61,102 bases of DNA from Candidatus Yanofskybacteria bacterium RIFCSPHIGHO2_01_FULL_43_32 (GCA_001794125.1 MGJF01000004.1:1-61102), one strand, 5' to 3'. Shown: positions 2,611 through 44,089, counted from the stretch's first letter. The notes: generated by a model from the letters alone, not told the origin. Numbers and translations are program-made.

Positions 2611-2625
2611 TCGCTCCCGCCATCT

Positions 2626-2771
2626 GAATAGTTCACATAACCTCCATGCATGACTGCGGGGTGCACTTTTTTAAAATATTACTAATTTTAAAAAAGCACA
2701 CGCCCTCCGCCGGTTGCTTAGTATGCAGCTTACACTTGGCAATAAAGGGTCAAACTATTCTGAAATAAAGT
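2626..2771 (+). repeat. long-hairpin element E, copy 1
   Basis: gaatagttcac-a-aacc...AT-rich-loop hairpin...ccggttg...tggcaat...caaact; 6 copies in window. Confidence 0.85.
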
Positions 2772-2825
2772 GCTATCTGAGCTGTTGATTTTATGAGGAA
2801 ATGGTGGAATAATCAAAAACATTAA

Positions 2826-3227
2826 ATGACGATAAACCCCATTGCACAAGCGATTGTTGATTGGACGAGGCTCAAAATAAAGCTTCATTTTTCAGACCGT
2901 GTTATCTATTTTAAGGAAAAACAAATTTGGTGGATAGCTATCGGACAGAATATTGGAGATGAACAGAATGGAAAGAATTCTAACTTTGAAAGGCCAGTTC
3001 TGGTACTAAAGAAATTTAACATGAATATGTTTTTGGGTGTCCCTATTTCTACTAAGATTAAAGACGACCAATATAAACATATCTTTACCAATAATGGCAC
3101 TCAATTCTCCGCAAATTTATCTCAAATTCGAGTTTTTAGTAGCAAAAGACTTTTACGCAAAGTTGGAGTTATGGAAAATTCTGATTTTGAACAAGTGAAA
3201 GAGGTGCTTAATAGTGGGATAAAATAA
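2826..3227 (+). CDS. PemK/MazF-family endoribonuclease toxin (orphan)
   Basis: IWWIAIGQNIGDEQNGK...RPVLVLKK...GVPIST...QIRVFSSKRL, typical PemK-like motifs; no adjacent antitoxin ORF. Confidence 0.85.
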   Translation: MTINPIAQAIVDWTRLKIKLHFSDRVIYFKEKQIWWIAIGQNIGDEQNGKNSNFERPVLVLKKFNMNMFLGVPISTKIKDDQYKHIFTNNGTQFSANLSQIRVFSSKRLLRKVGVMENSDFEQVKEVLNSGIK

Positions 3228-3279
3228 CGGCTCCCCCTTGCGGGGGAGCCTCGGAACCCTATTTCCAGGGTCAAAATGT
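3221..3279 (-). ncRNA. candidate small RNA convergent on pemK-like gene
   Basis: minus-strand TTGACT(3310-3315)-N18-TATACT(3286-3291) promoter, 5-bp hairpin, then GGCTCCCCC-GCAA-GGGGGAGCC hairpin plus T-rich tail. Confidence 0.55.
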
Positions 3280-3417
3280 ATTTAGAGTATAGCATGTCAA
3301 GCGGTCGGTAGTCAATAGTTATCAACAATTCGTCAAAGTGACATAAAAGCAATGGGACTACGATTTTGACTCTGCCCATCTTTAGATATATAATCATGAA
3401 AAAGATTTAACGTTTTT

Positions 3418-4104
3418 ATGAAATTAAATATTAAAGAACTACTCGATTTTCTTGATGATAAGAAAGATTCCCAAATGGGTGATGCCAATGCCATAATTGC
3501 TGTTCTCGGTGAGGATTTAAACGCTTCTGCATATAAACATTTTAGAGGAGGTAAGGTAGAAATTCTTAATGATTCAGTTCTTCCCGGTACTAATAAGGGT
3601 AAAAGATTAGATCGATGGATATTAGATAAGACTAATAATAATTTATTTCAATGTGAGATTAAGAATTGGGCAGCAACCGCCATTGGAGGTAAGTCATTGA
3701 AATCTGATGCAAGTATTGAAGAAACTAAAAAGATTGTTGAATATTACTGGAAACGCGAATTAAATAACAACCTTTCAAGCAAGGGGGAACACCCAAATGG
3801 TGTTACCAAGGTATTGCTTAAAATGAAACTACCTGACAAGCACAGTAAAATAAAGGTTCAACCGCTACTTATCTATTGGATGCCAATTTCTTCAGATATA
3901 GACGGGTTACATCCATTATCTGTTGTTTCTGTAAAATCACTTCATTTACCAATGGTGACTGAATTTTCAAAACTTTATGTTTTTTCTGTGTCCCTATACC
4001 TTCGCCAGTTGTATAAAAACGGGAAGGGGCAAAAACTTATTGACATAGACACACCACATTTTGAACATAGAATTAAAATATTAAATAAATTGGGGGATAA
4101 ATAA
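3418..4104 (+). CDS. putative PD-(D/E)XK nuclease-like protein
   Basis: RLDRWI...FQCEIKNW resembles the D...E-x-K catalytic motif; own TTGACT-N17-TATAAT promoter. Confidence 0.5.
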   Translation: MKLNIKELLDFLDDKKDSQMGDANAIIAVLGEDLNASAYKHFRGGKVEILNDSVLPGTNKGKRLDRWILDKTNNNLFQCEIKNWAATAIGGKSLKSDASIEETKKIVEYYWKRELNNNLSSKGEHPNGVTKVLLKMKLPDKHSKIKVQPLLIYWMPISSDIDGLHPLSVVSVKSLHLPMVTEFSKLYVFSVSLYLRQLYKNGKGQKLIDIDTPHFEHRIKILNKLGDK

Positions 4105-4105
4105 A

Positions 4106-4330
4106 AGCGAAGCCCCCACTCCTTTAGGCGATATTGCTTGAGTAGATACAAACAAACGAACATTTATAAAGTTTTCAGGAATAATAAAAATTTAGCCGGA
4201 AAATCCCCTTAGGGAGGAACGGATGCTAGAATTTTTATCCTGAAAACAAAAAAATGGAGTATTGTTTGTCTATTGAGAGCAGCCGAAGGCAATACAGAGT
4301 ATGCGCTTAAAGGGGTGAGGGCGGAGCGAC
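4106..4330. repeat. ~220-bp imperfect long hairpin (MITE-like or structured RNA)
   Basis: nested complementary segments: cccccactcctttaggcg/cgcttaaaggggtgaggg, tagatacaaacaa/ttgtttgtcta, gttttcagga/tcctgaaaac. Confidence 0.65.
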
Positions 4331-4340
4331 TAATACAACA

Positions 4341-11717: not shown

Positions 11718-11720
11718 TCC

Positions 11721-11849
11721 GAATAGCTCACACAACCTCTATACGTACGGAGGGAGACACCTTTTTAAAAATTTACTAATTTTGTAAAAAGTGTCTCCCT
11801 CCGCCGGTTGTTTACTTGATAGTTGGCAATTGGCAAGCGAGTTCAAACT
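11721..11849 (+). repeat. long-hairpin element E, copy 2
   Basis: cggagggagacac...gtgtctccctccg stem; immediately after rpoC stop. Confidence 0.85.
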
Positions 11850-11858
11850 AAATATACC

Positions 11859-11886
11859 TCAACGGCTCACACATGTGAGCCGTTGA
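11859..11886. repeat. 28-bp palindrome P28 (TCAACGGCTCA-cacatg-TGAGCCGTTGA)
   Basis: perfect 11-bp arms, 6-bp spacer. Confidence 0.9.
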
Positions 11887-11920
11887 TTTTAGGGTAAGAA
11901 AGTGGGAAGATTGGGAGATT

Positions 11921-12502
11921 ATGGGCGACATGAAGAAGTTAACTGAAGAGATTAGGGTGCATGTTTTTATTGATGCTTCAAACTTATGGCAAGCACAAAA
12001 AGCCAAAGGAAGCATGTTTGATTATGAAAAATTAAAGGCTTTTTTAAAAAATAAATTTACCGCTTCTGAGTTAAAAGTTTTCTATTACACAGCGTATCCA
12101 GCCGAAGGTACTAGGGACTATAGTCTTGATGGAAAACATAAGTTTTTTACCTATCTTAAAAAGGGACTCGGGTTTGATGTCAAAAAGAAAGAGCTAAAAA
12201 GGATAACGACACATAGTGATGCTGGTGATTCGATTCAAGAAAAAGGAAATATGGATGTTGAAATGACAATTGATGTAATACACAATGCTTCTAAATATGA
12301 CATTGCCGTCTTGTTCTCGGGTGATTCTGATTTTTTGGCATTAGTGACCTATTTGAAGAATATTGGTAAAAAGGTTTATATTTTTTCTTCAAAGAACAAC
12401 GTTTCCCAAGAATTAAGAACTGGAGGAGACGGTTATTTTGACGTGTTAAATTTGGAGGAAGATATTTGGCGCAGAGAACTCAAACATCGAGGTAGTAAGT
12501 GA
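11921..12502 (+). CDS. NYN domain (LabA/DUF88, PIN-like) ribonuclease
   Basis: VFIDASN, KGNMDVEMTID, LFSGDSDFLAL acidic motifs. Confidence 0.9.
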   Translation: MGDMKKLTEEIRVHVFIDASNLWQAQKAKGSMFDYEKLKAFLKNKFTASELKVFYYTAYPAEGTRDYSLDGKHKFFTYLKKGLGFDVKKKELKRITTHSDAGDSIQEKGNMDVEMTIDVIHNASKYDIAVLFSGDSDFLALVTYLKNIGKKVYIFSSKNNVSQELRTGGDGYFDVLNLEEDIWRRELKHRGSK

Positions 12503-12577
12503 TAAAAAAGCAACCCTCCTTGCGGAGGGTTGCCCTTAGATGTAATACCCTTTTGGTTCATGGTAGAACCAGAAGAT
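12503..12577 (-). ncRNA. candidate small RNA convergent on NYN gene
   Basis: minus-strand TTGACT(12608-12613)-N18-TATACT(12584-12589) promoter, 10-bp hairpin, then GCAACCCTCC-GCAA-GGAGGGTTGC plus T-run. Confidence 0.55.
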
Positions 12578-12627
12578 GTATAGAGTATAGCATGCCAGCC
12601 GGCCGGCAGTCAATGGTTGTCAACAGA

Positions 12628-12653
12628 TAGCGGCTCATGTAGTGAGCTGTTGA
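12628..12653. repeat. degenerate P28 copy
   Basis: tagcggctcatgtagtgagctgttga followed by ttttaggg, as in other copies. Confidence 0.65.
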
Positions 12654-12685
12654 TTTTAGGGGGAGAAAGTGGGATGATTTAAGAT

Positions 12686-13219
12686 GTGAATGAAGAAAAA
12701 ATTGAGTTACAAAAAAGAGAGTTAGCAGATATCAAGACGTATTTTCTTGACATGGCTAAGTATTCTGATAAAAGACAACATGAGGTTGACGACCACTTCA
12801 CATTTAGTCAATTGACAGTTGCCTCAATCATTTTTGCCCTGTCTCTAAATATTTTAAAAATAGTTGCGGAAAGTTTTATTTGGGTAAGAATATTTTACAT
12901 AGGCGGTCTCGTTTTGTTGTTATTATCGTTGATGTTTGGGGTTATTCATTTTAACATGAAAAATAAGTTTTGGAAGAGTAATGGTTTAAAATTTAGTGAA
13001 GTTTTTAATTTATGGAAGAGCGCGGAAAACAGGTCTTTACTAAGCAAAGACGAGGAATTTATTACCAGCATAAAGATTCAGACAAAATTAGGTGAGAATG
13101 CGATCTTGGGCAAAAAAGATAGCATATCACAAGATGGACGGGCTTCAGATTGGCAATCCATGACCTTAATTTTTGGTGCACTACTCGAAACTATTTCTTT
13201 GATTATTACTATTTTTTAG
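12686..13219 (+). CDS. hypothetical membrane protein (about 3 TM)
   Basis: GTG start; two adjacent hydrophobic helices plus a C-terminal helix; AT-rich island. Confidence 0.75.
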   Translation: MNEEKIELQKRELADIKTYFLDMAKYSDKRQHEVDDHFTFSQLTVASIIFALSLNILKIVAESFIWVRIFYIGGLVLLLLSLMFGVIHFNMKNKFWKSNGLKFSEVFNLWKSAENRSLLSKDEEFITSIKIQTKLGENAILGKKDSISQDGRASDWQSMTLIFGALLETISLIITIF

Positions 13220-13246
13220 CCTCACTCTCTTGGATTATGACAAACC

Positions 13247-13274
13247 TCAACGGCTCACACATGTGAGCCGTTGA
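13247..13274. repeat. P28 copy (spacer cacatg)
   Basis: identical to 11859-11886. Confidence 0.9.
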
Positions 13275-13331
13275 AATTTTAGGGAAAAGTTGTGCCTTGG
13301 CTAGGAGAGGCTTGGGTAGTAGAATTTAATC

Positions 13332-14345
13332 ATGGAAGATAGTTTAAACAATCATCCCACATATGTGGATCTTTTTAGTGGGGCAGGAGGGTTTAGTTTG
13401 GGATTTGATAATAATGGTTTTATAAATATTTTTTCTGTTGATATGGAGCCTAGTTTTTGTGAGACTTATAGCAAAAATTTTCCAGGGCACAGGTTAATCC
13501 AAAAAGATATAACAAACCTTACTAAGCAAGAAGTTTTAAGCCTTATTAAAGGTAAAAGAATAGATGTGGTTATTGGGGGTCCACCGTGTCAGGGTTTTAG
13601 TATGGCTGGCAATATTGGAAGAAAATTTGTAGACGATTCTAGAAATAGTTTATTAATGGAATTTGCAAGAATGGTAGAAATAATTAAGCCCAGTTATTTT
13701 ATCATGGAAAATGTTGCACGCCTATATAACCACAACAAGGGGAACACCAGAGAAGAGATAGTTAAAAAATTTATTAAATCAGGCTACAAAGTTGACTGTA
13801 GAATTTTAAATTCGGCAGATTATGGAGTTCCACAAATAAGAAAAAGAATTATTTTTGTTGGATCAAGGGTTGGAGGAAAAATATTATTTCCTGAGAGGGA
13901 GGTTGAAAGATATATAACAACGGAGGAGGCCTTAAGAGAATTTACTTCAAAAGATCTCAACAAAGATTCTAACATTTACAACCATGAGACAATGAAACAC
14001 TCAGGTCAAATGTTAAAAAAAATGAGCTATGTATCAGATGGAGGAAACAGGTTCGAGATACCTAGTCACATAAGACCAAAATCAGGCGATGTGAGAAAAT
14101 ACATAAGATATAACAGCAATAAACCATCAATTTGCGTTACTGGTGACATGAGAAAAGTTTTTCACTATTCGGAAAATAGGGCTCTAACTGTTAGGGAGTT
14201 AGCAAAACTTCAGTCATTTCCAAACGATTTTATTTTTGTAGGTTCTCGTATTTCTCAGCAGCAACAAGTTGGTAATGCCGTGCCGCCCTTGATGGCTTCA
14301 GCTATTGCTAGAGTGGTAAAAAAAATGATTAAAAATGATAAATAA
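13332..14345 (+). CDS. DNA (cytosine-5) methyltransferase
   Basis: motifs FSGAGG, GGPPCQGFS, ENV, QIRKR, GNAVPP. Confidence 0.95.
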   Translation: MEDSLNNHPTYVDLFSGAGGFSLGFDNNGFINIFSVDMEPSFCETYSKNFPGHRLIQKDITNLTKQEVLSLIKGKRIDVVIGGPPCQGFSMAGNIGRKFVDDSRNSLLMEFARMVEIIKPSYFIMENVARLYNHNKGNTREEIVKKFIKSGYKVDCRILNSADYGVPQIRKRIIFVGSRVGGKILFPEREVERYITTEEALREFTSKDLNKDSNIYNHETMKHSGQMLKKMSYVSDGGNRFEIPSHIRPKSGDVRKYIRYNSNKPSICVTGDMRKVFHYSENRALTVRELAKLQSFPNDFIFVGSRISQQQQVGNAVPPLMASAIARVVKKMIKNDK

Positions 14346-15348
14346 AGAATTACCCAAGATAAACTTCATAGGAAACAAAGAAAATATTTCCGGATGGATA
14401 TCCAGTTTTTTCCCTGCCGGTATTAAATCCGTGTTTGATGCTTTTTCTGGTGGTGGCTCAATTGGTTATCAAGCAAAAAAAATGGGATTTAGTGTTGTGA
14501 GCAACGATATATTGAGGGTCAATTACTTATTAGCGAAATCACTTATTGAAAACAATAGCGAGATTTTAAATGATTCAGACATAGAGGTTGTATTTAGAGG
14601 GAAACCTTTTCGTGGCTTTATGTTTGAAAATTACTCGAATGTATTCTTTTTTCCAGAAGAATGTATGGAGCTTGATTTATATAGAAAGAATATAGAAGAT
14701 TTATCGAATGAATTTAAAAAGGCCATTGCCATTTCCCTGATTAGGAGGGCGATGGTCAGAAAAATGCCATACTCTAGGTTTAATATAAAATGGGATAAGA
14801 TTAAACAACTAAGAGATGAAGAATATAGCTATAATAAGTATGGTAGACGAAGAGCATATCACAATATTTCTTTTAAGGATCATTTTTTAGAAAATGTTAA
14901 GGATTATAACAATGCAATATTTGATAACAATAAAAAAAATATCGCACTTAATGACGATACTTTTGACTTACTCGGAACAGTTAAGGCAGATTTAATTTAT
15001 CTTGACCCACCATATACGGGAACAATGAACAATTATTTCAGTTTTTATGGGCCACTTGATGAATACATAAGCTCAAAAAAACTAACGCCTTTTAAAAACA
15101 ATTTTATAGACAAACAAACTTCTGTGGCACTATTTGATAATTTATTTTCCAAACTATCAAGCTATAAGTATTGGTTTTTAAGTTATAACAACAGTTCATA
15201 TCCGTCCAAGGAAACCCTAATGGACTTATTAAGTAAGTATTGCAATAATGTTAAGGTTGTTGAAAGAGGACATGAATATAAAATCACAGGCAAAGATAAT
15301 AAACAAAAAAATAAGGAGTATTTATTTATAGCTACCAATATTAAATAA
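14335..15348 (+). CDS. DNA N6-adenine methyltransferase (Dam/FokI-like alpha group)
   Basis: DAFSGGGS motif I and YLDPPY motif IV. Confidence 0.93.
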   Translation: MINKELPKINFIGNKENISGWISSFFPAGIKSVFDAFSGGGSIGYQAKKMGFSVVSNDILRVNYLLAKSLIENNSEILNDSDIEVVFRGKPFRGFMFENYSNVFFFPEECMELDLYRKNIEDLSNEFKKAIAISLIRRAMVRKMPYSRFNIKWDKIKQLRDEEYSYNKYGRRRAYHNISFKDHFLENVKDYNNAIFDNNKKNIALNDDTFDLLGTVKADLIYLDPPYTGTMNNYFSFYGPLDEYISSKKLTPFKNNFIDKQTSVALFDNLFSKLSSYKYWFLSYNNSSYPSKETLMDLLSKYCNNVKVVERGHEYKITGKDNKQKNKEYLFIATNIK

Positions 15349-15357
15349 TAAAACAAT

Positions 15358-16425
15358 ATGACGAGTCAAAATTACGAAGATTATTGGAAGTTAACATTAG
15401 AGTATAGTGATATTAATAGTGACAAATTTTTAGGAACTTTGAGTATAATAGTGAATTTCATAGACAAGAATAGCTCAGAAGAATACTCAAAAGAAAAATA
15501 CGACAGACTACAACAAGAGGTTTTTGACACCTTTCCAAAAGAAGATATGGGCTCTGTTCGTAAAAGTATAAATCAGTTTATTAAACTGGGTTTCATCAAT
15601 TTTGAATTACGGTCGTATCATCCCAACACTAAAGACTTTATTAATGCAAAGACAAAAAGAAAAAGGCAGTCTATTTTTTCAAGGATAGTTTACACAAATT
15701 CAAGTTTTAGTCGTTCTGTTACCAACGATTCGAATGGTCGTGAAATAAATTTTTTGATAAAAACATTAGAAGAAAACGGTAAGTTGCATAAGAGAGACAT
15801 CATATCTCTAATGACAGTAGATGTTTCAGAAATAGCGAGCGGTTATTTAAATAGTCAAGAATTAAGCGACAGAAGGGTATACGCCGAAGAAATCGATTTT
15901 ATAGAAAGAAAATATAATCAAGTTTCTTATTTGTGGGGTGTTTTGGGTAAACTGGATGACCTGATTATAATCGATGATTATTTATATTTTCAAGAAGATG
16001 CCCAAGTAATTCTTGACTCTGAAATTAAGAAGGACAAATTGAGAGACCCATATTTACACAGAATATACAAAAATCAATTAAAAGAAGAAAGCACTGAAAT
16101 TTTAGGTGGTATCAAGTGTATGGTAGAAAAATTAGTCTACCCGACGCTTGTTGCAAGTCACATAAAACCATTTGTCAAATCCTCTGAAGAAGAATCATAC
16201 GATCCGGAAAATGGCTTGTTGTTAAGCCAAAACATGGACGGGCTGTTTGATAAGGGTTACATATCATTTAATGATGATGGGAGTATTATTTTATCAGATA
16301 AATTAGACCCCGAATTAAGAGATTATCTGAGCAAATACGTTCTCGACGGTGTTTTTGTTGGAGCCAAAAGGAAAGAGTATCTGAATTACCATAGAGAAAT
16401 TTTTGGAGAGAGATTGGGTATTTAG
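15358..16425 (+). CDS. HNH restriction endonuclease
   Basis: C-terminal LVASHIKP...ENGLLL...DGLFDKGYISF HNH_2-type domain, directly after two MTases. Confidence 0.88.
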   Translation: MTSQNYEDYWKLTLEYSDINSDKFLGTLSIIVNFIDKNSSEEYSKEKYDRLQQEVFDTFPKEDMGSVRKSINQFIKLGFINFELRSYHPNTKDFINAKTKRKRQSIFSRIVYTNSSFSRSVTNDSNGREINFLIKTLEENGKLHKRDIISLMTVDVSEIASGYLNSQELSDRRVYAEEIDFIERKYNQVSYLWGVLGKLDDLIIIDDYLYFQEDAQVILDSEIKKDKLRDPYLHRIYKNQLKEESTEILGGIKCMVEKLVYPTLVASHIKPFVKSSEEESYDPENGLLLSQNMDGLFDKGYISFNDDGSIILSDKLDPELRDYLSKYVLDGVFVGAKRKEYLNYHREIFGERLGI

Positions 16426-16451
16426 AAAAAATTTTTGGTGTGATTCAAATT

Positions 16452-16473
16452 CCGCCCACTCGGGCGGTTTTTG
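16452..16473 (+). terminator. intrinsic terminator (repeated at 18294-18315)
   Basis: ccgccc-actc-gggcgg plus T-run. Confidence 0.75.
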
Positions 16474-16556
16474 TTTCGAACCGGATTAATTTTTAGTCAA
16501 GATTGTTGGGGTAAATTTTGTATGATAAAATAAAGCAAAATTTTTAATTACCAAAC

Positions 16557-17075
16557 ATGCTTGATTTTCTTACCGATTTTCTTAAAAACATTAACGATAA
16601 CTATGCCCAGGTATTCCTACTTTTAATAGCAGTCCTCTCCACCTTTTTTGTTTATAATGAATTTGTTTTAAAAATAAGACCTTATGTAATACCAGAAATT
16701 GCCGTTGAGCTGAAGGATGGAAATTGGTATTTCAATATTGTTTTAATAAACAAAGGTGAAAAGCCGGGGATTGCAAGAATTATCAATGCTGTTCTAAAAA
16801 TAGGAGATGAAAAATATCCTACACTTTTTGAACTTAACCTTGTTCTTGCTCCGAATGAGCGTCAGAGAGTTCTTCCCATTGGACACATAAGTAGTATTGG
16901 CAGAACAAAGATACTAGGTCACGAATATGTAGATAACAATGTCCAAATATTTTTAGAAATTGAGTCTAAGGCCATTGGAGATAAAAAATTCAAATATAAA
17001 ACCAAGGAAGAATATCGTGTAGACGTAAGTGGGAGCCAACCCCGCATTACATTAATAAAAGAAGACCTGAATTAA
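16557..17075 (+). CDS. hypothetical protein with N-terminal TM anchor
   Basis: 172-aa ORF, hydrophobic N-terminus, beta-rich remainder. Confidence 0.7.
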   Translation: MLDFLTDFLKNINDNYAQVFLLLIAVLSTFFVYNEFVLKIRPYVIPEIAVELKDGNWYFNIVLINKGEKPGIARIINAVLKIGDEKYPTLFELNLVLAPNERQRVLPIGHISSIGRTKILGHEYVDNNVQIFLEIESKAIGDKKFKYKTKEEYRVDVSGSQPRITLIKEDLN

Positions 17076-17160
17076 AAATCGCTGAAATCTGGGGCGAATA
17101 AAAAATGATAGTCTGGTGCACTTTACTTTGCTTAATAATCTGCTAAACTTCAGATTTATT

Positions 17161-18096
17161 ATGGTCGACACGCCTCAACCCATACAAAAAGAGAATAATT
17201 TACATAAACTGGCAAAAGCAACAGTTGTATTTAGAAACAAGCCCACACTTCTTTTGAATCTTGACCATGTCATGCCCATGTCAGTAATGCTTGTTGCTAA
17301 AGAATTACATGGGAAAAATATTCCAGACCTGGATGTTATTTTACATACTCCGGGAGGCCACATCGAATCTGCCTATAAAATTGTAAAATTATTACGCAAA
17401 CATGCGAAGAAAATAAACGTAATTGTTCCATCATTCGCAAAAAGTGCAGGAACTTTAATTTGTCTTTCAGGGGAAACTCTCATGTTGTCTACGATATCAG
17501 AGCTCGGTCCGTTAGATGTGCAAATCGCCGAGCACCAAGAAGGCGATATAGATACCTACAAGTCAGCCCTTAATGGCTATAAAGCTCTTGAGCAAATTCA
17601 AAATCATGCAGTTGAAAATCTTGATGTTGCAACACAACTTATTTTACAACGAACCGGTAATAGGATGAGATTGCAAGATATTATAAAATTAGCCATTGAT
17701 TTTTCCGGCAATACGAGTGGTTGTCTATATAACCAGATTCATCCTAAAACTATTGCAGAATCGGCTCGCTATTTGGATATTGGCGAACAATACGGAGTGA
17801 GAATCTTAGAGCGTTATATGGGTTGGGATAAGATCAAGGCAACAAAAGTTATACACCATCTTGTCTATGATTATCCATCACATGAGTTTATAATAGATAA
17901 AGAAGAGTTGTCGAAAATGGGATTTGCTGTACAGGATATTCCGAGTGAATTGGAGATACCTCTTGAAACATCGGCGGCACTTTTACAGGGGCAAGATATA
18001 AAATTCTTTGATATAATAAACCCCGGTTCCTCAAAAGTAAAGTTAGAAAATAAAAATACTAAAAAAAATGAAAAAGATTCCAAAAAAGCAAAATAA
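17161..18096 (+). CDS. SDH-family Clp-fold (S49-like) serine protease
   Basis: LHTPGG, IVPSFAKSAGTLI, ELGPLDVQ motifs; start chosen at the ATG at 17161. Confidence 0.85.
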   Translation: MVDTPQPIQKENNLHKLAKATVVFRNKPTLLLNLDHVMPMSVMLVAKELHGKNIPDLDVILHTPGGHIESAYKIVKLLRKHAKKINVIVPSFAKSAGTLICLSGETLMLSTISELGPLDVQIAEHQEGDIDTYKSALNGYKALEQIQNHAVENLDVATQLILQRTGNRMRLQDIIKLAIDFSGNTSGCLYNQIHPKTIAESARYLDIGEQYGVRILERYMGWDKIKATKVIHHLVYDYPSHEFIIDKEELSKMGFAVQDIPSELEIPLETSAALLQGQDIKFFDIINPGSSKVKLENKNTKKNEKDSKKAK

Positions 18097-18268
18097 GAAG
18101 CCAGAGGAAGCACAACAAGGAGTGGTTATCGATGCAGATATGGCCGGATTTATAAAACGTATAATCAGCGATAGCCGCTCCTTGGTAAAAGATATAAATC
18201 GTGCCAAACATGCACTTGGGTCTACTCCTGTTTTTTCTGTCGATAAACAACGCCGCTATATATTATAA
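18068..18268 (+). CDS. small basic protein overlapping protease 3' end
   Basis: 66-aa ORF followed by a terminator. Confidence 0.5.
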   Translation: MKKIPKKQNKKPEEAQQGVVIDADMAGFIKRIISDSRSLVKDINRAKHALGSTPVFSVDKQRRYIL

Positions 18269-18293
18269 AAGATGTGATTAGTTTTGAATTTTT

Positions 18294-18315
18294 CCGCCCA
18301 CTCGGGCGGTTTTTG
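18294..18315 (+). terminator. intrinsic terminator (identical to 16452-16473)
   Basis: ccgcccactcgggcggtttttg. Confidence 0.75.
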
Positions 18316-18325
18316 ATTATTTGGG

Positions 18326-18589
18326 TTGGGGGAGTATGATGAGGGTATGAAAAAGATTTTTGCCGAGATTGGTTTGGGAAATGAAACTTTTCTTTCTACT
18401 GAAATTGAGGAGAGCGATGGTGAGTATCGGATTTCTGGATTTATAATACCCAAGAAAATAAAAGGGTGTTATATACGCATTTGGGTTTTTAAAACTGTTT
18501 TTATTATATCTACTGATAATGGGTTTGAAATTAAGAAAAAAGATAAAAAAAGATTAAAAATAATTTTTGGTATTTCTGGGATAGAATAA
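18326..18589 (+). CDS. hypothetical protein
   Basis: 87-aa ORF (start may be ATG 18347). Confidence 0.5.
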   Translation: MGEYDEGMKKIFAEIGLGNETFLSTEIEESDGEYRISGFIIPKKIKGCYIRIWVFKTVFIISTDNGFEIKKKDKKRLKIIFGISGIE

Positions 18590-18674
18590 TTAAGATTAAC
18601 CCCAAAACTGCTGAAATCTGGGGCGACGACCGAATGTACGGAGAATGATGTTTTTATGATCCCCACACATATGA

Positions 18675-18704
18675 CATCCTTACAAACTGGAGTTTGTAAG
18701 GATG
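18675..18704. promoter_or_regulatory. 30-bp palindrome, putative operator
   Basis: catccttacaaact-gg-agtttgtaaggatg just upstream of TATAAT and the ArsR-like gene. Confidence 0.6.
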
Positions 18705-18723
18705 TTGTGTATATAATGTAGGC

Positions 18724-19014
18724 ATGGCAATATCAAAGATAAAGACTGCAAAACAAATGGAACGGCACCTCAAGGGAATGTCTAATCATTACCGCATTGA
18801 GATATTGCTTTTGATTGCGGAGAGCGGAGGCATAACCCTTGAGAACATTATTAAGGCGATAGGGGCAAATGAGAAAACTCTCGGGGAACATACACGACGA
18901 CTTCATCAGGCAGGATTAATTAATAAAAGATATCGGGGCAAATTTGTAGAGCATACCTTGTCACCATACGGCAAAGCATTTTCCCGCTTTCTTAAAACCT
19001 TCCAACAAACCTAA
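18724..19014 (+). CDS. ArsR/SmtB-like winged-helix regulator
   Basis: KGMSNHYRIEILLLI...TLGEHTRRLHQAGLI wHTH pattern. Confidence 0.8.
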   Translation: MAISKIKTAKQMERHLKGMSNHYRIEILLLIAESGGITLENIIKAIGANEKTLGEHTRRLHQAGLINKRYRGKFVEHTLSPYGKAFSRFLKTFQQT

Positions 19015-19030
19015 TGAGGCAACATAATAT

Positions 19031-19060
19031 CATCCTTACAAACTGGAGTTTATAAGGATG
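19031..19060. promoter_or_regulatory. second copy of the 30-bp palindrome
   Basis: catccttacaaactggagtttataaggatg, 1 mismatch to 18675-18704. Confidence 0.6.
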
Positions 19061-19094
19061 ATAAGAAGTTTAAAATAAATGCTATAATAAAAAT

Positions 19095-19520
19095 ATGAAT
19101 AAAATCTTTTGGAAAAGGATTGGGGTGGTGTTTGTGATTGCGCTTGTGGTAAGTGTGGGGGTCGACCGGTTTTGGGAGTGGGCGTTTCCGAACAGTTCAT
19201 CGCGTTGGGACACTACGACGGTTATCGCCGTGATACTCGCTTATGTTGTTATCATGTGGGGTCGGCGTGGAAAGGGTATTTGGTGCAAAGATAATGGTGT
19301 GGCGTCAGGGTTAAGTCAGCCGGAAATGAAAAAAGATGAAAATCTGGACAAGGTAATAGGGATGTTTAATTCGGGCAATGAGATAACCAATGATGAAGTT
19401 GAGAAAGCACTCGGGGTTTCGGACGCTACAGCGACCAGATATCTGGATAAACTGGAGGCCGAGGGCAAGATAGTCCAAATCGGCAAAGAAGGGAGATTTG
19501 TCAAATACCGCTTAAAATAG
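19095..19520 (+). CDS. 2-TM membrane protein with C-terminal winged HTH
   Basis: two hydrophobic segments, then ITNDEVEKALGVSDATATRYLDKLEAEG. Confidence 0.75.
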   Translation: MNKIFWKRIGVVFVIALVVSVGVDRFWEWAFPNSSSRWDTTTVIAVILAYVVIMWGRRGKGIWCKDNGVASGLSQPEMKKDENLDKVIGMFNSGNEITNDEVEKALGVSDATATRYLDKLEAEGKIVQIGKEGRFVKYRLK

Positions 19521-19527
19521 ACCGTCC

Positions 19528-19555
19528 TCAACGGCTCACATGTGTGAGCCGTTGA
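19528..19555. repeat. P28 copy (spacer catgtg, inverted relative to 11859 and 13247)
   Basis: tcaacggctcacatgtgtgagccgttga; right edge of the AT-rich island. Confidence 0.9.
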
Positions 19556-19583
19556 GGACTGGCCGCTTAGTTAATCATGTTTT

Positions 19584-19913
19584 ATGGATTTTAACGAATA
19601 TCAAAAACAATCACGGAAGACGGCTATATATCCGGACAAGGGGAAGAATTATATTTATCCCGCTTTGGGATTGGGCGGGGAGTCCGGCGAGGTTTTGGAA
19701 AAGATTAAGAAGCTTATCAGAGACAAGAACGGCAAAGTTGATAAAGAGTTTTTGGTTCTATTGGAGAAAGAGCTTGGAGACATGCTGTGGTATCTTGCCA
19801 ACCTGGCTTCCGAATTCAAAATTAAGTTAGATATTATTGCCATAAATAATCTCAAAAAACTTGCAGACCGCAAGAAGCGTAATAAACTAAGAGGGGAGGG
19901 CGACCTGCGCTAA
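19584..19913 (+). CDS. MazG-like nucleoside triphosphate pyrophosphohydrolase
   Basis: LGLGGESGEVLEKIKK...KELGDMLWY. Confidence 0.9.
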   Translation: MDFNEYQKQSRKTAIYPDKGKNYIYPALGLGGESGEVLEKIKKLIRDKNGKVDKEFLVLLEKELGDMLWYLANLASEFKIKLDIIAINNLKKLADRKKRNKLRGEGDLR

Positions 19914-19969
19914 ACCGGCCCGAAAAAGCCGATTTTGTTTTTAGGGAAAAATGATATAGTAACTCCGAT

Positions 19970-20458
19970 ATGTCTAAAGAAAAACTTAAAATTGACAATG
20001 AACTGGCTAAAGAATTTGACGGGTTGATACGGGAAGAAGGCCGGAAGATAGAACCCGAAGAACGAATCCAAAAGACCCTGTGGGCTTTGGATGCGTTAAA
20101 ACAAGAGAACAGGATAAAACCCGGGACGACGCTGACGGAACTTATACGAATTATTGAGGAAAGGCAGAGGGAATTACGGCAGACCGATGCCTATGCCAAA
20201 GATACCGCTGAAAGCCCGGTTAGAGATGAAGTTGGCGCCGAACTGCAAAAGGTTGCCGAAAAGGAGTTTGAAACGGCCGAACGGTTGCTCGGCTATTTGA
20301 ACGCCGCCTGGTCCGTATTAAAGCCGATGGACATGACAGCGTATGATTCGGAAATCGACTTGGGCCAGCTGCAAGCCAGATTAAAAAGAGACCTTGCGTT
20401 AAGAGAAGCCAATGTTAATCGTGATGAAAAAGAAAAGCGGGGACGGAAACAGGGGTAA
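19970..20458 (+). CDS. hypothetical alpha-helical protein
   Basis: 162-aa charged ORF with upstream -10 box. Confidence 0.7.
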   Translation: MSKEKLKIDNELAKEFDGLIREEGRKIEPEERIQKTLWALDALKQENRIKPGTTLTELIRIIEERQRELRQTDAYAKDTAESPVRDEVGAELQKVAEKEFETAERLLGYLNAAWSVLKPMDMTAYDSEIDLGQLQARLKRDLALREANVNRDEKEKRGRKQG

Positions 20459-20497
20459 TTTGATTTTTTTACCGAAAAGTATGTATACTATATAGGT

Positions 20498-22702
20498 ATG
20501 GCGAGGCATAAAAAGAAAGATAAATCAGCAAAATCCAAGGAAGAGCGGGTGTCAAAGTTTGATATTTCCCGGGAAACCAAGAACAGCATCTGGGGCATAG
20601 GGAGTTTTATATTGGCCGTTTTGAGCGTCTTAAGCTTTGTCGGCAAAGCCGGCTGGGCCGGCGAGGGGTTTGATATTTTCGCGCGTTCTCTTTTTGGCTG
20701 GGGATTTTTTATTGTTCCGGCGGCTTTTCTTCTTCTCGGCCTTTCTTTTGTTAAATCAATATCAAGAAATATCTATCATAGCGCGGTATTCGGAACCTTG
20801 CTTTTCGTCTCATCTGTTCTGGGAATGTTTTACATATTCGGGAACGGTAATTTTGACACAAGACTGGTTCAGGGCGGATATCTCGGAGTTATTCTTGGGG
20901 CGCCTCTTTTGTCTTCCGTTGGTTTCGGGGCCTCATTGATAATTTTGCTTTCTTTAATCATCATTGCCTTGTTGGTATCCTTGAATGTCCCGCTTTACGG
21001 ACTGCTTTCCAAAAAGGACGAGGAGGAAGAAAAATTAGTTGACAATGTCGTGATTAAAAAAGGTTCCGAAGTTGTTGACCAGAAAAAACAATCAGTTAAG
21101 CCGGCTCTTGCCGCTAAGCCCGTAAAGGTTGAAGAAAAAGAATTCGTCATCAAGAATTTCAAAAAAGGCAGATGGGTTCTTCCGCCAACCGACCTTCTGC
21201 ACGAAGACCAGGAAGAAGCGATTACCGGAGACATTAACACCAGCGCATCCATAATCAAGAGAACTTTGGGCAACTTCGGGATTGATGTGGAAATGGGTGA
21301 AGTATCAATCGGCCCTACGGTTACCCAATTTACAATGAGACCGGCGGTTGGCATGAAACTATCGCGCATTACGGCGCTGAACCCCGATCTGTCTTTGGCT
21401 TTGGCCGCTTATCCAATCAGGATTGAAGCTCCAATTCCGGGCAAGTCCTTAGTCGGCATAGAAGTTCCCAACAAAAAGGTGGCGTTGATAGGTTTGAGAA
21501 ACATGTTTGACCACGATGACTTTAAGAAATCAAAATATTTCCTGCCTCTTGCTTTGGGACGGGATGTTTCGGGAAATCCGGTTTTTGCCGGACTTGAAAA
21601 AATGCCCCACCTCATGATTGCGGGCGCGACCGGCACCGGTAAATCCGTCAGCATCAACACGATACTTCTTTCCATGCTTTATAAACATTCTCCCGAAGTT
21701 TTGAAATTGATTCTGATTGACCCGAAGCGCGTGGAGCTTACCCTGTTCAACGATATCCCGCATCTGATAACCCCGGTCATTACCGATAACAAAAAAGTTC
21801 TCGGAGCTTTGAAGTGGTCCTTGGGTGAAATGGACAGGAGATATGACGCGCTTTCAAAGAGCGGTTCCAAAGACATATTTTCATACAATGCAAAAATGGC
21901 TAGCAAGAGTGAAGCCGACCTGCCTGCCGGCAGGCAGGTAATGCCGGCTATCGTGATTGTTATAGACGAGTTAGCCGATTTGATGGCCTCATACGGGCGC
22001 GACGTAGAAGCGGCTATCGTGCGTCTGGCTCAGATGTCCCGGGCGGTGGGAATACATCTCATTTTGTCCACCCAGAGGCCTTCGGTCGAGGTTATCACCG
22101 GACTTATCAAAGCCAACATCACTTCCCGTGTGGCTCTTCAAGTGGCCAGCCAGATAGACTCCAGAACTATTCTTGATATGGCCGGAGCCGAGAAGCTTCT
22201 TGGTAAGGGAGATATGCTTTTCTTGGCCGGCGACGTGGCTAAGCCACGCCGATTGCAGGGCGCAATGGTGACTGAAAAAGAAGTCAAAGACGTCATGAAA
22301 TTCATCAAAGCCCAGGCCGAGAATATGGAAGTGGACGAAGAAAATGATTTGAAACTTGATTTTAATGCGAATATCAATTCCAGCGGAGGATTTACCGGCG
22401 GGGGAAGTGATGATGTCGACGATGATATGTATGGCGAAGCAAAGGAGACAGTTGTCTTGGCCGGCAAGGCCTCGGCGTCGCTTTTGCAAAGGCGTCTGCG
22501 CGTCGGATATGCCCGGGCCGCCCGATTGCTGGATATTCTTGAAGAAAAGGGCATTATCGGGCCGGGGGATGGCGCCAAACCCAGAGAAGTCTATATCAGG
22601 CCTGACGGCACGGTAGCCCAGGAACCGGCTAATCTGGTCGGAGCAAGCGGAATAAACGCAGACACTCCCGAAGCAGAAGCTGAAGAGACAGAAGAGGTGT
22701 AA
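20498..22702 (+). CDS. ftsK: DNA translocase FtsK
   Basis: N-terminal TMs, PHLMIAGATGTGKS, STQRPS, C-terminal gamma domain ASASLLQRRLRVGYARAAR. Confidence 0.97.
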   Translation: MARHKKKDKSAKSKEERVSKFDISRETKNSIWGIGSFILAVLSVLSFVGKAGWAGEGFDIFARSLFGWGFFIVPAAFLLLGLSFVKSISRNIYHSAVFGTLLFVSSVLGMFYIFGNGNFDTRLVQGGYLGVILGAPLLSSVGFGASLIILLSLIIIALLVSLNVPLYGLLSKKDEEEEKLVDNVVIKKGSEVVDQKKQSVKPALAAKPVKVEEKEFVIKNFKKGRWVLPPTDLLHEDQEEAITGDINTSASIIKRTLGNFGIDVEMGEVSIGPTVTQFTMRPAVGMKLSRITALNPDLSLALAAYPIRIEAPIPGKSLVGIEVPNKKVALIGLRNMFDHDDFKKSKYFLPLALGRDVSGNPVFAGLEKMPHLMIAGATGTGKSVSINTILLSMLYKHSPEVLKLILIDPKRVELTLFNDIPHLITPVITDNKKVLGALKWSLGEMDRRYDALSKSGSKDIFSYNAKMASKSEADLPAGRQVMPAIVIVIDELADLMASYGRDVEAAIVRLAQMSRAVGIHLILSTQRPSVEVITGLIKANITSRVALQVASQIDSRTILDMAGAEKLLGKGDMLFLAGDVAKPRRLQGAMVTEKEVKDVMKFIKAQAENMEVDEENDLKLDFNANINSSGGFTGGGSDDVDDDMYGEAKETVVLAGKASASLLQRRLRVGYARAARLLDILEEKGIIGPGDGAKPREVYIRPDGTVAQEPANLVGASGINADTPEAEAEETEEV
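21918..21939. repeat. in-frame CCTGCCTGCCGGCAGGCAGG palindrome in ftsK (encodes LPAGRQ)
   Basis: same palindrome at 26288-26307 and 44070-44091. Confidence 0.8.
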
Positions 22703-23818: not shown

Positions 23819-23880
23819 GCCCCGCACCAAACTTATCCGCTAACCGCCATTAAGAAAGGGGGCGGGTTTGGTGCGGGGTC
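23819..23880. repeat. ~63-bp CCCCGCACCAA...TTGGTGCGGGG hairpin element, copy 1
   Basis: homologous to 27621-27685 and 38268-38330. Confidence 0.85.
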
Positions 23881-26268: not shown

Positions 26269-26308
26269 TTGTGGATCGTTTTGAGTCCCTGCCTGCCGGC
26301 AGGCAGGC

Positions 26309-26418: not shown

Positions 26419-26446
26419 TCAACGGCTCACATATGTGAGCCGTTGA
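26419..26446. repeat. P28 copy (spacer catatg); left arm overlaps the rpsF -35 box
   Basis: minus strand reads TTGACA-N17-TAATAT toward rpsF. Confidence 0.85.
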
Positions 26447-26455
26447 TTTGTTGCA

Positions 26456-26588
26456 GAATAGTTCACACAACCTCCATGCATACGGAGGGAGACGTCTTTT
26501 TAAAAATTTACTAATTTTGTAAAAAGTGTCTCCCTCCGCTGGTTGCTTTGGTTGTTAAGTGATGATTGGCACTAGAAGGTCAAACTCT
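26456..26588 (+). repeat. element E, copy 3
   Basis: near-identical to copy 2. Confidence 0.85.
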
Positions 26589-26801
26589 CTCTGATATTTT
26601 CAAGTCAAAATTATTACCCCTATGTCCAGTGTAGGGGTAGATTTATTATTTTGGAATACATATCCAATCAACTTCAGCTCTTGATTCGCCTCGTCAAAGT
26701 GATTCGAAATGATGAGGCTGCGCTTGATACTCCAATGCTTGCTTTATTTAAAACATATTGTATAATAAAGTAGCTTAGTTCTTTTAAGGAATGGGTGACG
26801 G

Positions 26802-27446: not shown

Positions 27447-27594
27447 TACTTTATTTCAGAAGAGTTTGAATCTTAATTGCCAAATATCAAATATTTACTA
27501 AGCAACCGGCGGAGGGCGTGTGCTTTTTTAAAATTAGTAATATTTTAAAAAAGTGCACCCCGCAGTCATGTATAGAGGTTGTGTGAGCGATTCT
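27447..27594 (-). repeat. element E, copy 4 (inverted)
   Basis: reverse complement nearly identical to copy 1. Confidence 0.85.
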
Positions 27595-27620: not shown

Positions 27621-27685
27621 CCCCGGCACCAAGCTAATCCGCTGACCGCCATTAAGAAAAGGGGCGGGCTTGGTGCGGGGCAGGC
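27621..27685. repeat. 63-bp hairpin element, copy 2
   Basis: ccccggcaccaagc...gcttggtgcgggg. Confidence 0.85.
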
Positions 27686-37879: not shown

Positions 37880-38917
37880 TTATTCTAATCCCATCTTTTC
37901 TTTTACTTCTTTTAGTGTAGAACCGGCTAATGCTTTAGCTTTTTCTTCGGATTTTATTAAAATAGACATAACGTAGTCAGGATTTTTCTTGAGTTCGTTA
38001 TATTTTTCCTGAAACGGTTTCAAAAAGCCCACAACAACTTCGGCGAGGTCGTTCTTGAAGTCCGCATATGATTTGCCTTCGTATTCGGCTTCAATGTTTT
38101 TTATCTCTTTTCCCGAGAGCATGTGGAAGATGGTGATAAGATTTGAGATTGCCGGCTTTTCTTCCTCGTTGTAGTAAACTTCTTTTCCGGAGTCGGTGAC
38201 GGCTTTTTTAATTTTTAACCTAATCTCATTTGGAGTATCAACTAGAAAAATACAACTATCGTCTCCGGCCTGCCCCGCACCAAGCCCGTCCCCTTTGCTG
38301 GCGGTCAGCGGATCAGCTTGGTGCGGGGTCTTGGACATTTTTTTGCCCGGATCCTGGAGGGACATTATTCTGGCACCTTCAGTCAGTTTTGCTTTGACCG
38401 GTTCAAATGTCTGGCCGAACATGGAATTAAATTTTTTGGCAATCTCGTTGGCTAAGTCGATGTGGGGCATCTGATCTTCTCCGACAGGAACAAGATTGGA
38501 TTTATAAATTAAAATATCGGCGGCCATTAAAACGGGATAATCTAAAAGCCCCATGTGGTTGTACTTGGGGGATTTGGCGAGCTGTTCTTTATGGGTAGGC
38601 AGGCGATCCAGCCAGCTCACCGGTGTAATCGTATTAAATATCCAAGCGAGTTCCGTATGCTGGGAGACTTTTGACTGGCGGATAAGGAGTGCTTTGTCGG
38701 GGTCAACTCCGGCGGCTAAATAATCCAAAACTACGTCCATGACTTGCCCGCGGTATTTCTTTGGGTCAAAAGGGGTAGTAATGCCGTGGTAGTCCACAAC
38801 GGCAAAAATTGCCTGGTCGGTTTTGTCCTGAAGTTCAATCCAGTTTTTGATGGCTCCGAGGTAGTTGCCGAGATGCAATTTTCCCGACGGTCTTATGCCA
38901 GAAAACACTTTGGTCAT
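37880..38917 (-). CDS. trpS: tryptophan--tRNA ligase with in-frame palindromic insertion
   Basis: SGIRPSGKLHLGNY, VPVGEDQ, KKMSK; start chosen at MTKVF. Confidence 0.96.
   Translation of the reverse strand: MTKVFSGIRPSGKLHLGNYLGAIKNWIELQDKTDQAIFAVVDYHGITTPFDPKKYRGQVMDVVLDYLAAGVDPDKALLIRQSKVSQHTELAWIFNTITPVSWLDRLPTHKEQLAKSPKYNHMGLLDYPVLMAADILIYKSNLVPVGEDQMPHIDLANEIAKKFNSMFGQTFEPVKAKLTEGARIMSLQDPGKKMSKTPHQADPLTASKGDGLGAGQAGDDSCIFLVDTPNEIRLKIKKAVTDSGKEVYYNEEEKPAISNLITIFHMLSGKEIKNIEAEYEGKSYADFKNDLAEVVVGFLKPFQEKYNELKKNPDYVMSILIKSEEKAKALAGSTLKEVKEKMGLE
38268..38330 (-). repeat. 63-bp hairpin element, copy 3, in frame in trpS
   Basis: encodes TPHQADPLTASKGDGLGAGQA directly after KKMSK. Confidence 0.85.
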
Positions 38918-41345: not shown

Positions 41346-41438
41346 AACCGCTTTAAAGAGACACGATTATCAATCAGTTAATACGATTAAATGACTAAAT
41401 AGATCATGACTTACTATGAGTATTGGTTTTTACTAATG

Positions 41439-41522
41439 TGGGCGAGGGGAGATTTGAACTCCCACGAGCTTGCGCTCATAGCGCTCTGAACGCTACATGT
41501 CTGCCAGTTTCATCACTCGCCC
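41439..41522 (-). tRNA. tRNA-Leu(CAG)
   Basis: GGGCGAG/CTCGCCC acceptor, TAGCG-TTCAGAG-CGCTA anticodon arm, long variable arm, TTCAAAT T-loop; CCA not encoded. Confidence 0.95.
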
Positions 41523-44019: not shown

Positions 44020-44089
44020 ACTATGGTTATAACGATAGCATCAAAAGGATTAAAATTCAACCATTGACACCTGCCTGCCTGCCGGCAGG

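Follow-up and report, generated by a model that had tools for sequence, protein, structure and literature searches.

Short inverted repeats that lie between genes have been described in several bacterial systems. The element considered here is a perfect palindrome, TCAACGGCTCA-N6-TGAGCCGTTGA, which recurs in a 61,102-nt stretch of DNA from Candidatus Yanofskybacteria bacterium RIFCSPHIGHO2_01_FULL_43_32 (GCA_001794125.1, MGJF01000004.1:1-61102; "the window" below means this whole stretch). Among the described systems, it can be compared with the repetitive extragenic palindromic (REP) sequences and bacterial interspersed mosaic elements (BIMEs) of E. coli and Pseudomonas, and with the REPIN-RAYT systems (REP doublets and their REP-associated tyrosine transposases). 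Like the palindrome, these are short (28-40 bp), extragenic, multi-copy hairpins that are homogeneous within a genome. They also share its bias to gene 3' ends and convergent spacers, and the functions proposed for them are termination, insulation and the stabilisation of mRNA. The palindrome differs from them in being present in tens of copies rather than hundreds, in being perfect rather than imperfect, and in that the apical stem is the conserved part, shared by different genomes, with outer arms particular to each of them. Neisseria, a naturally transformable, small-genome lineage, carries dRS3 repeats within neisserial intergenic mosaic elements (NIMEs), as well as terminators made of paired DNA uptake sequences (DUS). 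There, as here, short inverted repeats together with units of ~100-150 nt (in the window, a repeat called BR) flank variable genes, and the joints are the places where gene content varies. However, the two systems have no sequence relation, half-sites of the palindrome never occur singly, and no associated phage or IS110-type integrase was seen. A role as a DNA uptake sequence, which would be over-represented both singly and in inverted pairs, was also considered and rejected: in 1.02 Mb of loci, 12 of the 13 half-sites found outside exact palindromes belong to variant palindromes.

Three other systems share individual features with the palindrome. Xer dif sites and the pdif modules of Acinetobacter resemble the four copies in the window in their 28-bp length, their 11-6-11 layout and their position between gene modules. 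The attC sites of integrons are likewise palindromic, are similar within an array, have core sites (RYYYAAC/GTTRRRY) that the outer arm ends of the palindrome, TCAAC/GTTGA, resemble, and separate cargo open reading frames (ORFs) of the same orientation. However, attC sites are imperfect and 57-141 bp long, whereas the sites here are perfect hairpins of 28-36 bp with no extrahelical bases; furthermore, the window contains no IntI or attI, and its cargo genes seem to carry promoters and terminators of their own. CIRCE, the operator of HrcA, is also a near-perfect inverted repeat that is conserved over distant genomes and can function as DNA as well as in the form of an RNA hairpin. Unlike CIRCE, which is always found upstream of the same chaperone operons, the palindrome has no conserved target genes.

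A pattern scan of the whole window found four exact matches to TCAACGGCTCA-N6-TGAGCCGTTGA, and none was found in 100 dinucleotide-preserving shuffles. An earlier inspection of the DNA alone (the sequence-only reading) had reported 11-6-11 palindromes at 11859, 13247, 19528 and 26419, and all four are exact. The first, pal1 (11859-11886; centre CACATG; TCAACGGCTCAC-acat-GTGAGCCGTTGA), follows rpoC and a BR repeat, and the start codon of a gene encoding a NYN-domain protein lies 34 nt further on. An identical sequence, pal2 (13247-13274; centre CACATG), is located between a gene for a transmembrane (TM) protein and a C5-methyltransferase gene. The core of pal3 (19528-19555; centre CATGTG) is part of a perfect 36-bp palindrome (19524-19559; 16-bp stem, loop ATGT) between the second of two winged helix-turn-helix (wHTH) genes and MazG, and pal4 (26419-26446; centre CATATG) lies just before another BR repeat. 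Since C and G border the centre, the sites are best seen as stems of 12 bp with loops of 4 nt. The degenerate copy previously placed at 12628 is also real. It spans 12620-12653 (TCAACAG[ATAGCGG]CTCA-tgtag-TGAGCTGTTGA), has a 7-nt insertion in its left arm, and belongs to a variant subfamily (TCAACAG..CTGTTGA) in which a G>A change in one arm is paired with a C>T change in the other. Half of a variant palindrome, together with a leader sequence, remains at 2777-2788 (CTGAGCTGTTGA), upstream of a PemK/MazF-like gene. Apart from this remnant, all copies in the window lie within 15 kb, and the 11-mer arm does not occur in the window outside the palindromes. The same sequence is present in independent assemblies from NCBI, JGI and ENA, including MGKK01000003.1 (GCA_001794695.1, a Patescibacteria metagenome-assembled genome [MAG] from the Rifle aquifer); thus, the palindromes are not an assembly artefact. 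Their single-strand hairpins are stable (-13.8 to -21.4 kcal/mol, z -7 to -10). A TTTT run follows pal1 and the decayed copy, pal4 has TTTGTTG, and the T-run of pal2 is offset by 3 nt. In a scan of the window against Rfam 15, only tRNA reached gathering thresholds, and the palindromes gave only weak, chance-level matches.

The behaviour of the element in related genomes indicates that pairing of the arms is what is maintained. A scan with the C-terminus of RpoC yielded 33 related metagenome loci with RpoC identities of 74-96% (loci are given L numbers below). Just before the first gene after rpoC, these relatives have palindromes whose arms have drifted but are still perfectly paired. Examples are TCAACGGCTCGC-atat-GCGAGCCGTTGA in L091 (paired change CTCGC/GCGAG), TCAAACGGCTCAT-acat-ATGAGCCGTTTGA in L085, TCAATAGTTGTC-atat-GACAACTATTGA in L100, which also has a paired arm change, and TCAAATGGCTCAC-atat-GTGAGCCATTTGA in L099, which lies within a 56-bp palindrome and has the paired change TCAAATGG/CCATTTGA. 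The spacing of the arms varies as well, from the 10-7-10 form in L090 to 12-4-12 forms and longer apices, and L089 has a shortened form that is followed by CTTTTT. Among 20 hand-picked variants, two-sided changes are present in 10 of the 15 stem pairs and 92.6% of cells are paired, a count that describes these variants and is not an unbiased estimate; none of 500 shuffles attains the observed pairing, and no slid register comes close. One-sided changes of the G-U type are rare (5 cells vs 29), whereas a real RNA encoded in the same locus has several G-U pairs, which suggests that the constraint or mutational process acts on both DNA strands. Pairing also runs into the unique flanks in 66% of the copies, up to ~21-22 bp, and it extends for at least 3 bp in 34% of copies compared with an expected ~1.6%. 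None of the diverged sites has hybrid, mismatched arms or uncoupled left and right flanks. This perfect symmetry in every diverged site speaks against crossovers at the centre between diverged sites, which would yield hybrid arms. The arms drift at old orthologous sites, but the dispersed copies have identical arms.

The palindrome is a repeat family that is found well beyond the window. An exact-pattern scan of one genome per GTDB species located it at 72 loci in 37 other genomes, nearly all of them MAGs of Patescibacteria, with 1 to 13 loci per MAG. The records label the carriers as Yanofskybacteria, Paceibacterota, Parcubacteria, 'Saccharibacteria' or Patescibacteria group; some of these labels are unreliable, and the 'Saccharibacteria' label of CAZZGH is doubtful because its BR repeats are 75-86% identical to those of the window. 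The exceptions outside the Patescibacteria are one Omnitrophota contig, which is probably mis-binned, and one Chryseobacterium terminator, which could be a chance match. Most sites of one genome have the same centre, but genomes differ in it: ACGCGT in CAYOYH (13 loci), ACCCGT/ACGGGT in JAHKAK (9 loci) and ACGAGT in JAHIOZ. In these three genomes the shared core forms the apex of longer, genome-specific palindromic repeats. The element is intergenic in nearly all of 79 cases, of which 36 are in tandem spacers, 10 in convergent and 6 in divergent ones; in about 25 of the 36 tandem cases, by our reading of the positions, the nearer codon is the stop of the upstream gene rather than the start of the next one. 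Its neighbours are diverse. Clustering of 407 nearby ORFs gave no family present in more than 4 of the 38 genomes, and Pfam assigned 182 families to 126 immediate neighbours, none in more than two proteins. These are mostly housekeeping families, including MreB, FtsW, S2, Pol III delta' and tRNA synthetases, with a few restriction-modification (R-M) genes. Neither the neighbour clusters nor Pfam revealed a recurrent recombinase, transposase or regulator near the 72 loci. Literature queries returned nothing on this palindrome: a query with the arm sequence gave unrelated primers, and queries for Patescibacteria palindromes, REP elements and LexA gave nothing applicable.

Within the window, the palindromes mark the joints between cassettes of a hypervariable region. 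From left to right, the genes and repeats are ordered as rpoB, rpoC, BR, pal1, NYN, the decayed palindrome, the TM protein gene and pal2; then the C5-methyltransferase (MTase), a D12 N6-MTase, an HNH nuclease, a hypothetical gene, a ClpP-like SDH protease, DUF3977, the two wHTH genes and pal3; and finally MazG, hyp162, FtsK, RecA, the minus-strand genes rpsR, ssb and rpsF, pal4, BR and DUF218. By Pfam, the cargo, all on the plus strand at 11718-20481, thus consists of NYN, the TM protein, the C5 and N6 methyltransferases, the HNH nuclease, the SDH protease, DUF3977, two wHTH proteins, MazG and hyp162. GC content is 0.30-0.38 between 12 and 19 kb and 0.44-0.49 on either side. Relatives that are ~90% identical in RpoC carry anything from nothing to more than 10 kb of unrelated cargo at such hot spots. 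The rpoC-ftsK spacer itself is 78 nt in L083, where it has a decayed palindrome, ~400 nt in L094, and from 1 to more than 10 kb of unrelated cargo in others. Homology to relatives ends at the rpoC stop codon (11717) and restarts at 20482, 16 nt before the ftsK start codon. Since MazG and hyp162, to the right of pal3, are absent from relatives and homology restarts only at 20482, these two genes are also cargo, and pal3 is an internal joint rather than the right boundary. The sequence-only reading had the palindromes both partition and bound a defence island; they do lie at joints between accessory blocks in a low-GC hypervariable region, but the limits of that region are 11717 and 20482. In part, the association with joints is trivial, since most spacers of any size are found in accessory regions.

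Finer breakpoints fall next to the palindromes. In relatives that share both BR and pal1 (L085, L088, L091, L095 and L096), homology ends at 11889-11892, 3-6 nt to the right of pal1, and the ends of loose metagenome contigs pile up at 11889. L099 shares everything up to 12625, at the left edge of the decayed copy. A conserved leader (11887-11920, plus strand; TTTTAGGGTAAGAAAGTGGGAAGATT, repeat family D7) begins directly after pal1, and a second copy (12654-12685) lies between the decayed palindrome and the TM gene. The leader (TTTTAGG..AGAAAGTGGGAAGAT) precedes different cargo, namely NYN, the TM gene, a 996-aa ORF in L098 and a gene in L056, and it is also present in L099. It is promoter-like, with TTGATT, 17 nt, and then TGG-GAAGAT. 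A second hot spot, between ftsW and rpoB (2611-4339, from ftsW to the next gene), contains BR, the half palindrome, the leader, the PemK-like gene, a terminator and a conserved 3' unit, and it is empty in L104. A third variable spot, rpsF-ychF, holds pal4; there, L081 and L097 have TGTCAAC/GTCAAC and no palindrome. Finally, other palindrome families occupy the equivalent joints of relatives (ACATCCTTACAAAC-tgga-GTTTGTAAGGATGT, CAAAAACCGCC..GGCGGTTTTTG and AGTCAAACCTTGCTAAATTGCC..), which supports a generic structural role.

The reading that we tentatively prefer, although with less than even confidence, is that the element is a dispersed, perfectly self-complementary hairpin repeat, extragenic and REP-like, whose core is TCAACGGCTCA(C)-loop-(G)TGAGCCGTTGA, and that it would serve as stem-loop punctuation between cassettes. 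The sequence-only reading had offered REP-like hairpins as its alternative to Xer sites, and the family survey, the paired arm changes and the variable loops fit that alternative better. The hairpin could form on either strand, and would punctuate independently acquired genes in the rpoC-ftsK, ftsW-rpoB and rpsF-ychF spacers. Its function may lie at the RNA level or in insulation, as a transcript boundary, an insulator, or a hairpin that protects RNA ends. At the DNA level, the palindrome is probably kept perfect by template switching from arm to arm, and new copies probably arise when a [palindrome + leader] unit is duplicated upon cassette insertion, as may have happened around the NYN and small-RNA module.

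Several observations weigh against this REP-like punctuation. On the plus strand pal3 is followed by no T-run, and across the family the flanks are T-rich upstream and A-rich downstream with no downstream T enrichment, unlike a canonical intrinsic terminator, in which a G+C-rich stem-loop after a stop codon leads straight into a U-tract. The metatranscriptomes of the study share no words with the locus, and so lend no transcript support to termination, processing or stabilisation. The variants behind the covariation count were picked as palindromes, which introduces an ascertainment bias. Structure alone hardly accounts for 11-nt arms that are the same in many genomes, which hints at a partner that recognises the sequence or at a mobile origin. 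Finally, the REP hallmarks that were looked for (an end tag, a RAYT gene, more than 100 copies) were not found. A GTAG or CGTC end tag is named as a REP feature in the title of a published description (PMC3733652). By inspection, no such tag is seen in the palindrome, whose ends read (t)TCAACGG...CCGTTGA(a), and neither the neighbour clusters nor the leading Pfam families of the 126 flanking proteins include a RAYT (Y1 transposase).

Alternatively, the palindrome could be selfish. In this case, which we consider rather unlikely, the core would be the recognition module of a non-autonomous mobile element, either REP/RAYT-like or the apex of a miniature inverted-repeat transposable element (MITE), which has no host function and is spread, both inside a genome and from one Patescibacteria genome to another, by a transposase encoded elsewhere. 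This explanation overlaps with the preferred one and would explain the identical arms in distant genomes. The distribution of the palindrome agrees with it: occurrence is patchy over MAGs, copies come in bursts inside single genomes, and the centre is specific to the genome; the longer repeats of CAYOYH, JAHIOZ and JAHKAK have the core at their apex; and the arms are identical among dispersed copies while they drift at old orthologous sites. The element is also present or absent at one and the same promoter, that of rpsF, with pal4 in the window and TCAAC only in L081 and L097, and in metagenomes the repeats are covered ~20-30 times as deeply as the genome. However, no Y1 or other transposase was seen near the 72 loci or in the window, and there are no direct target-site duplications. 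Moreover, MITEs and REPINs usually show the reverse of the layout seen here, in which the centre is conserved and the ends vary. A phage origin was rejected as well, as there were 0 matches in 2.9 million viral contigs.

An improbable explanation is hairpin-dependent cassette capture, in which the folded palindrome would be the attachment site (similar to attC or to the target of IS110/IS1111) of some site-specific system that inserts foreign cassettes, and would be regenerated on each side of an insertion. The NYN cassette hints at it. The NYN-domain gene (11921-12502) is followed by a small-RNA gene (12503-12613, minus strand) in a tail-to-tail (convergent) arrangement, and this module is bracketed by two [palindrome + leader] units as direct repeats. 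In L119 and L120 the NYN module lies between 36-nt direct repeats with a hairpin, GTCGGCTCAA..TTGAGCCGAC, that shares the CGGCTCA/TGAGCCG core. In addition, the cargo blocks are all in one orientation with full palindromes between them, the breakpoints with five relatives fall 3-6 nt to the right of pal1, and the outer arm ends TCAAC/GTTGA resemble, by inspection, the RYYYAAC/GTTRRRY core sites of integrons. A foreign block also lies between host-type palindromes. This R-M block (13332-16425; C5-MTase, D12 N6-MTase and HNH nuclease) has a GC content of 0.30-0.35, and the nearest homologues of its C5-MTase are in Bacteroidota (Flavobacteriales, Winogradskyella, Bernardetia and Pedobacter), at 65-70% identity. 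The block is thus foreign, which suggests acquisition across phyla; at only 65-70% identity, these homologues provide no close donor in which to look for palindromes that travelled with it.

Other observations argue against capture. No integrase or recombinase was found among the window genes tested, the sites lack bulges and are far shorter than attC, and every diverged site has matched arms, with no hybrids. Across the family, the palindromes are mostly beside housekeeping genes and are not at junctions of GC composition, as they do not differ from other spacers in this respect (n=42 vs 199, p=0.43). Furthermore, the NYN module is present in five other contexts (L114, L115, L116/L117, L118 and L099) without flanking direct-repeat hairpins. 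In its most specific form, the proposal would make the CGGCTCA...TGAGCCG hairpin core the recognition element of an undescribed Patescibacteria system that uses folded DNA to capture defence cassettes and shuffle them, in hot spots beside core genes (rpoC-ftsK and ftsW-rpoB) whose outer boundaries would be BR repeats; this, too, we hold to be improbable. If it were true, the capture system would in function be an integron-like platform without the integron integrase.

The NYN module itself appears to be mobile among the candidate phyla radiation (CPR), another name for the Patescibacteria. At E <= 1e-20 the NYN protein has more than 2200 homologues; identity is 73-100% for the best 120, which span many CPR groups, among them Moranbacteria, Nomurabacteria, Magasanikbacteria and Paceibacterota. 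NYN is therefore far more conserved than RpoC, suggesting horizontal spread. Elsewhere, it is located inside type I or type III R-M operons or beside McrBC, and its 3' flank, the small-RNA unit, is conserved everywhere that NYN was examined. The unit also occurs at 3228-3327, in L099 and in L114-L120; the copy at 3228-3327 follows the PemK/MazF-like toxin gene (2826-3227), upstream of which no antitoxin ORF was noticed. The small RNA has a predicted promoter (TTGACT, 17-18 nt, TATACT; 12613-12584, minus strand) and a U-tract terminator at its end. The RNA, ~75 nt in length, would fold into two hairpins that covary, with 6 compensatory pairs; G-U pairs appear on the minus strand alone, and GGGUAUUACAUCCAAGG is a conserved stretch that would stay single-stranded. 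It has no match in Rfam 15. The RNA is a candidate for an antitoxin or for a regulator of RNase toxins.

It is quite improbable that the palindrome is an operator for a symmetric DNA-binding regulator of accessory or defence genes, in the manner of CIRCE, or a donor of outward-facing -35 boxes (TTGAnn). The identity of the arms over genomes would suit an operator, as would the promoter-like leader and the two wHTH genes directly upstream of pal3. Similarly, pal4 overlaps the predicted -35 box (TTGACA, minus strand) of a strong predicted promoter for rpsF-ssb-rpsR. However, different genomes do not have orthologous genes beside the palindrome, close relatives show free drift of the arms, and neither variable spacing of half-sites nor pairing into the flanks is expected for a dimer-binding site. 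As for the donation of -35 boxes, correctly spaced -10 boxes are not in excess (9.1% vs 9.0% in controls).

The weakest explanation, and the one put forward by the sequence-only reading, is that the palindromes are core sites of a tyrosine recombinase of the Xer/dif type, similar to pdif modules, which would excise NYN with the TM gene and invert the R-M block; at the level of sequence it fails every testable hallmark, and we regard it as very improbable. The features that recommend it are the 11-6-11 geometry in four copies, the centre that is uniform within a genome and different between genomes, the position at cassette joints, and an ftsK gene near pal3. A dif core comprises 28 bp, with 11-bp arms on either side of a 6-8-bp centre, and the dif consensus is ...ATAA-N6-TTATG..., with distinct XerC and XerD arms. 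In contrast, the arms of the palindrome are exact reverse complements, so that there is no XerC/XerD asymmetry. A dif-like pattern does not match the palindromes, and its 14 occurrences in the window, versus 12 expected, are at chance level. The 11-6-11 geometry fits the four exact copies, but the orthologous copies in relatives deviate from it, and pairing runs into the flanks. A dif site is expected once per chromosome, at the replication terminus, where GC skew switches. The palindrome is chromosomal and multi-copy (four to six within 25 kb), and the cumulative GC skew rises monotonically over the window with no switch. No Xer gene is present in the window, nor did Pfam detect a recombinase or transposase among the window genes tested. 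The spacer of pal3, which had been taken as inverted, needs no inversion: a single substitution separates CACATG, and likewise CATGTG, from CATATG, which is found as the centre in pal4 and in most relatives, so the orientation of pal3 comes down to a single loop base. The proximity of ftsK, which had been seen as a hint of Xer, also has a simpler basis. This gene (with a gamma domain) is 943 nt from pal3, but in all relatives it is the gene conserved to the right of the hot spot.

Rearranged forms of the locus were not observed either. Tests of REARRANGEMENT covered 24 contigs that encode an identical MazG protein (NCBI, JGI and ENA) and the Logan contigs of six metagenome runs, and all of these show the reference order only. 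At >=97% identity, Logan contigs have a flat depth over the island and cross pal3 (19033-21269), and no joint of one palindrome with another is listed; some end inside pal1 and pal2. At 90% identity, joints at palindromes have sides of 28-30 nt, which means that they are other copies of the repeat. The absence of rearranged contigs is weak but consistent evidence, as contigs cannot reveal rare variants.

Other repeats accompany the palindromes. BR is a structured repeat of ~130-146 nt that is present in the window at 11721-11855, 2626-2771, 26456-26590 and 44090-44212 on the plus strand and at 27448-27593 and 44563-44687 on the minus strand; 58 copies are found in related loci. It forms a long hairpin around an AT-rich apex and has a possible short terminal inverted repeat (GAATAGTT). 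BR starts a few bases past the stop codons of core genes, and the copy at 11721 starts 4 nt after that of rpoC. In relatives, inverted pairs (BR+...BR-) bracket the variable spacers ftsW-rpoB, rpoC-ftsK and ftsK-recA, and in the window such pairs bracket DUF218 and a 350-nt segment. BR may be the real boundary element of the islands, or it may be a MITE.

The palindrome ACATCCTTACAAAC-tgga-GTTTGTAAGGATGT, which is perfect over 30-32 bp, is present at 18674-18705 and 19030-19061, on both sides of a small MarR-like wHTH gene. The same arrangement around this gene is seen in L101, and L090, L098, L099 and L100 also contain this palindrome. In metagenomes it is covered ~30 times as deeply as the genome, which indicates a high copy number in the community. 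This palindrome may be the operator of the wHTH regulator or another repeat family. A third hairpin family, CCCCGCACCAA...TTGGTGCGGGG (~59 nt, copies ~90% identical), is found after recA (23820-23878), after ychF (27622-27680) and near 38.3 kb (38268-38328), and its members look like shared, terminator-like elements. A short palindromic motif, TGCCTGCCGGCAGGCA, occurs four times, at 12586-12612, 21910-21936 (inside ftsK), 26279-26305 and 44065-44091. The 132-nt periodic direct repeats at 31812-32421 (69-78% identical) are ordinary tandem domain repeats in the gene for a 697-aa BNR/Sortilin-like protein with dockerin/EF-hand domains. ARAGORN predicts a tRNA-Leu(CAG) at 41438-41522 (minus strand), but the only tRNA that Rfam reports at gathering thresholds is at 60862-60948.

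Patescibacteria have tiny genomes, and their defence is mostly of the R-M type. To our knowledge, their repeat families and the mechanics by which their gene content changes have barely been described. The locus analysed here is a defined hot spot between rpoC and ftsK, where the defence cargo differs completely between relatives ~90% identical in RpoC, and in which at least three families of perfect palindromes and a structured repeat of 130 nt mark the joints. For the proposed dif sites the value of the analysis is mainly negative, in that annotation of these palindromes as dif or pdif is to be avoided. Without a specific protein partner, the shared hairpin would be an ordinary REP-like repeat; with one, it would provide a handle on how Patescibacteria acquire and insulate foreign genes.

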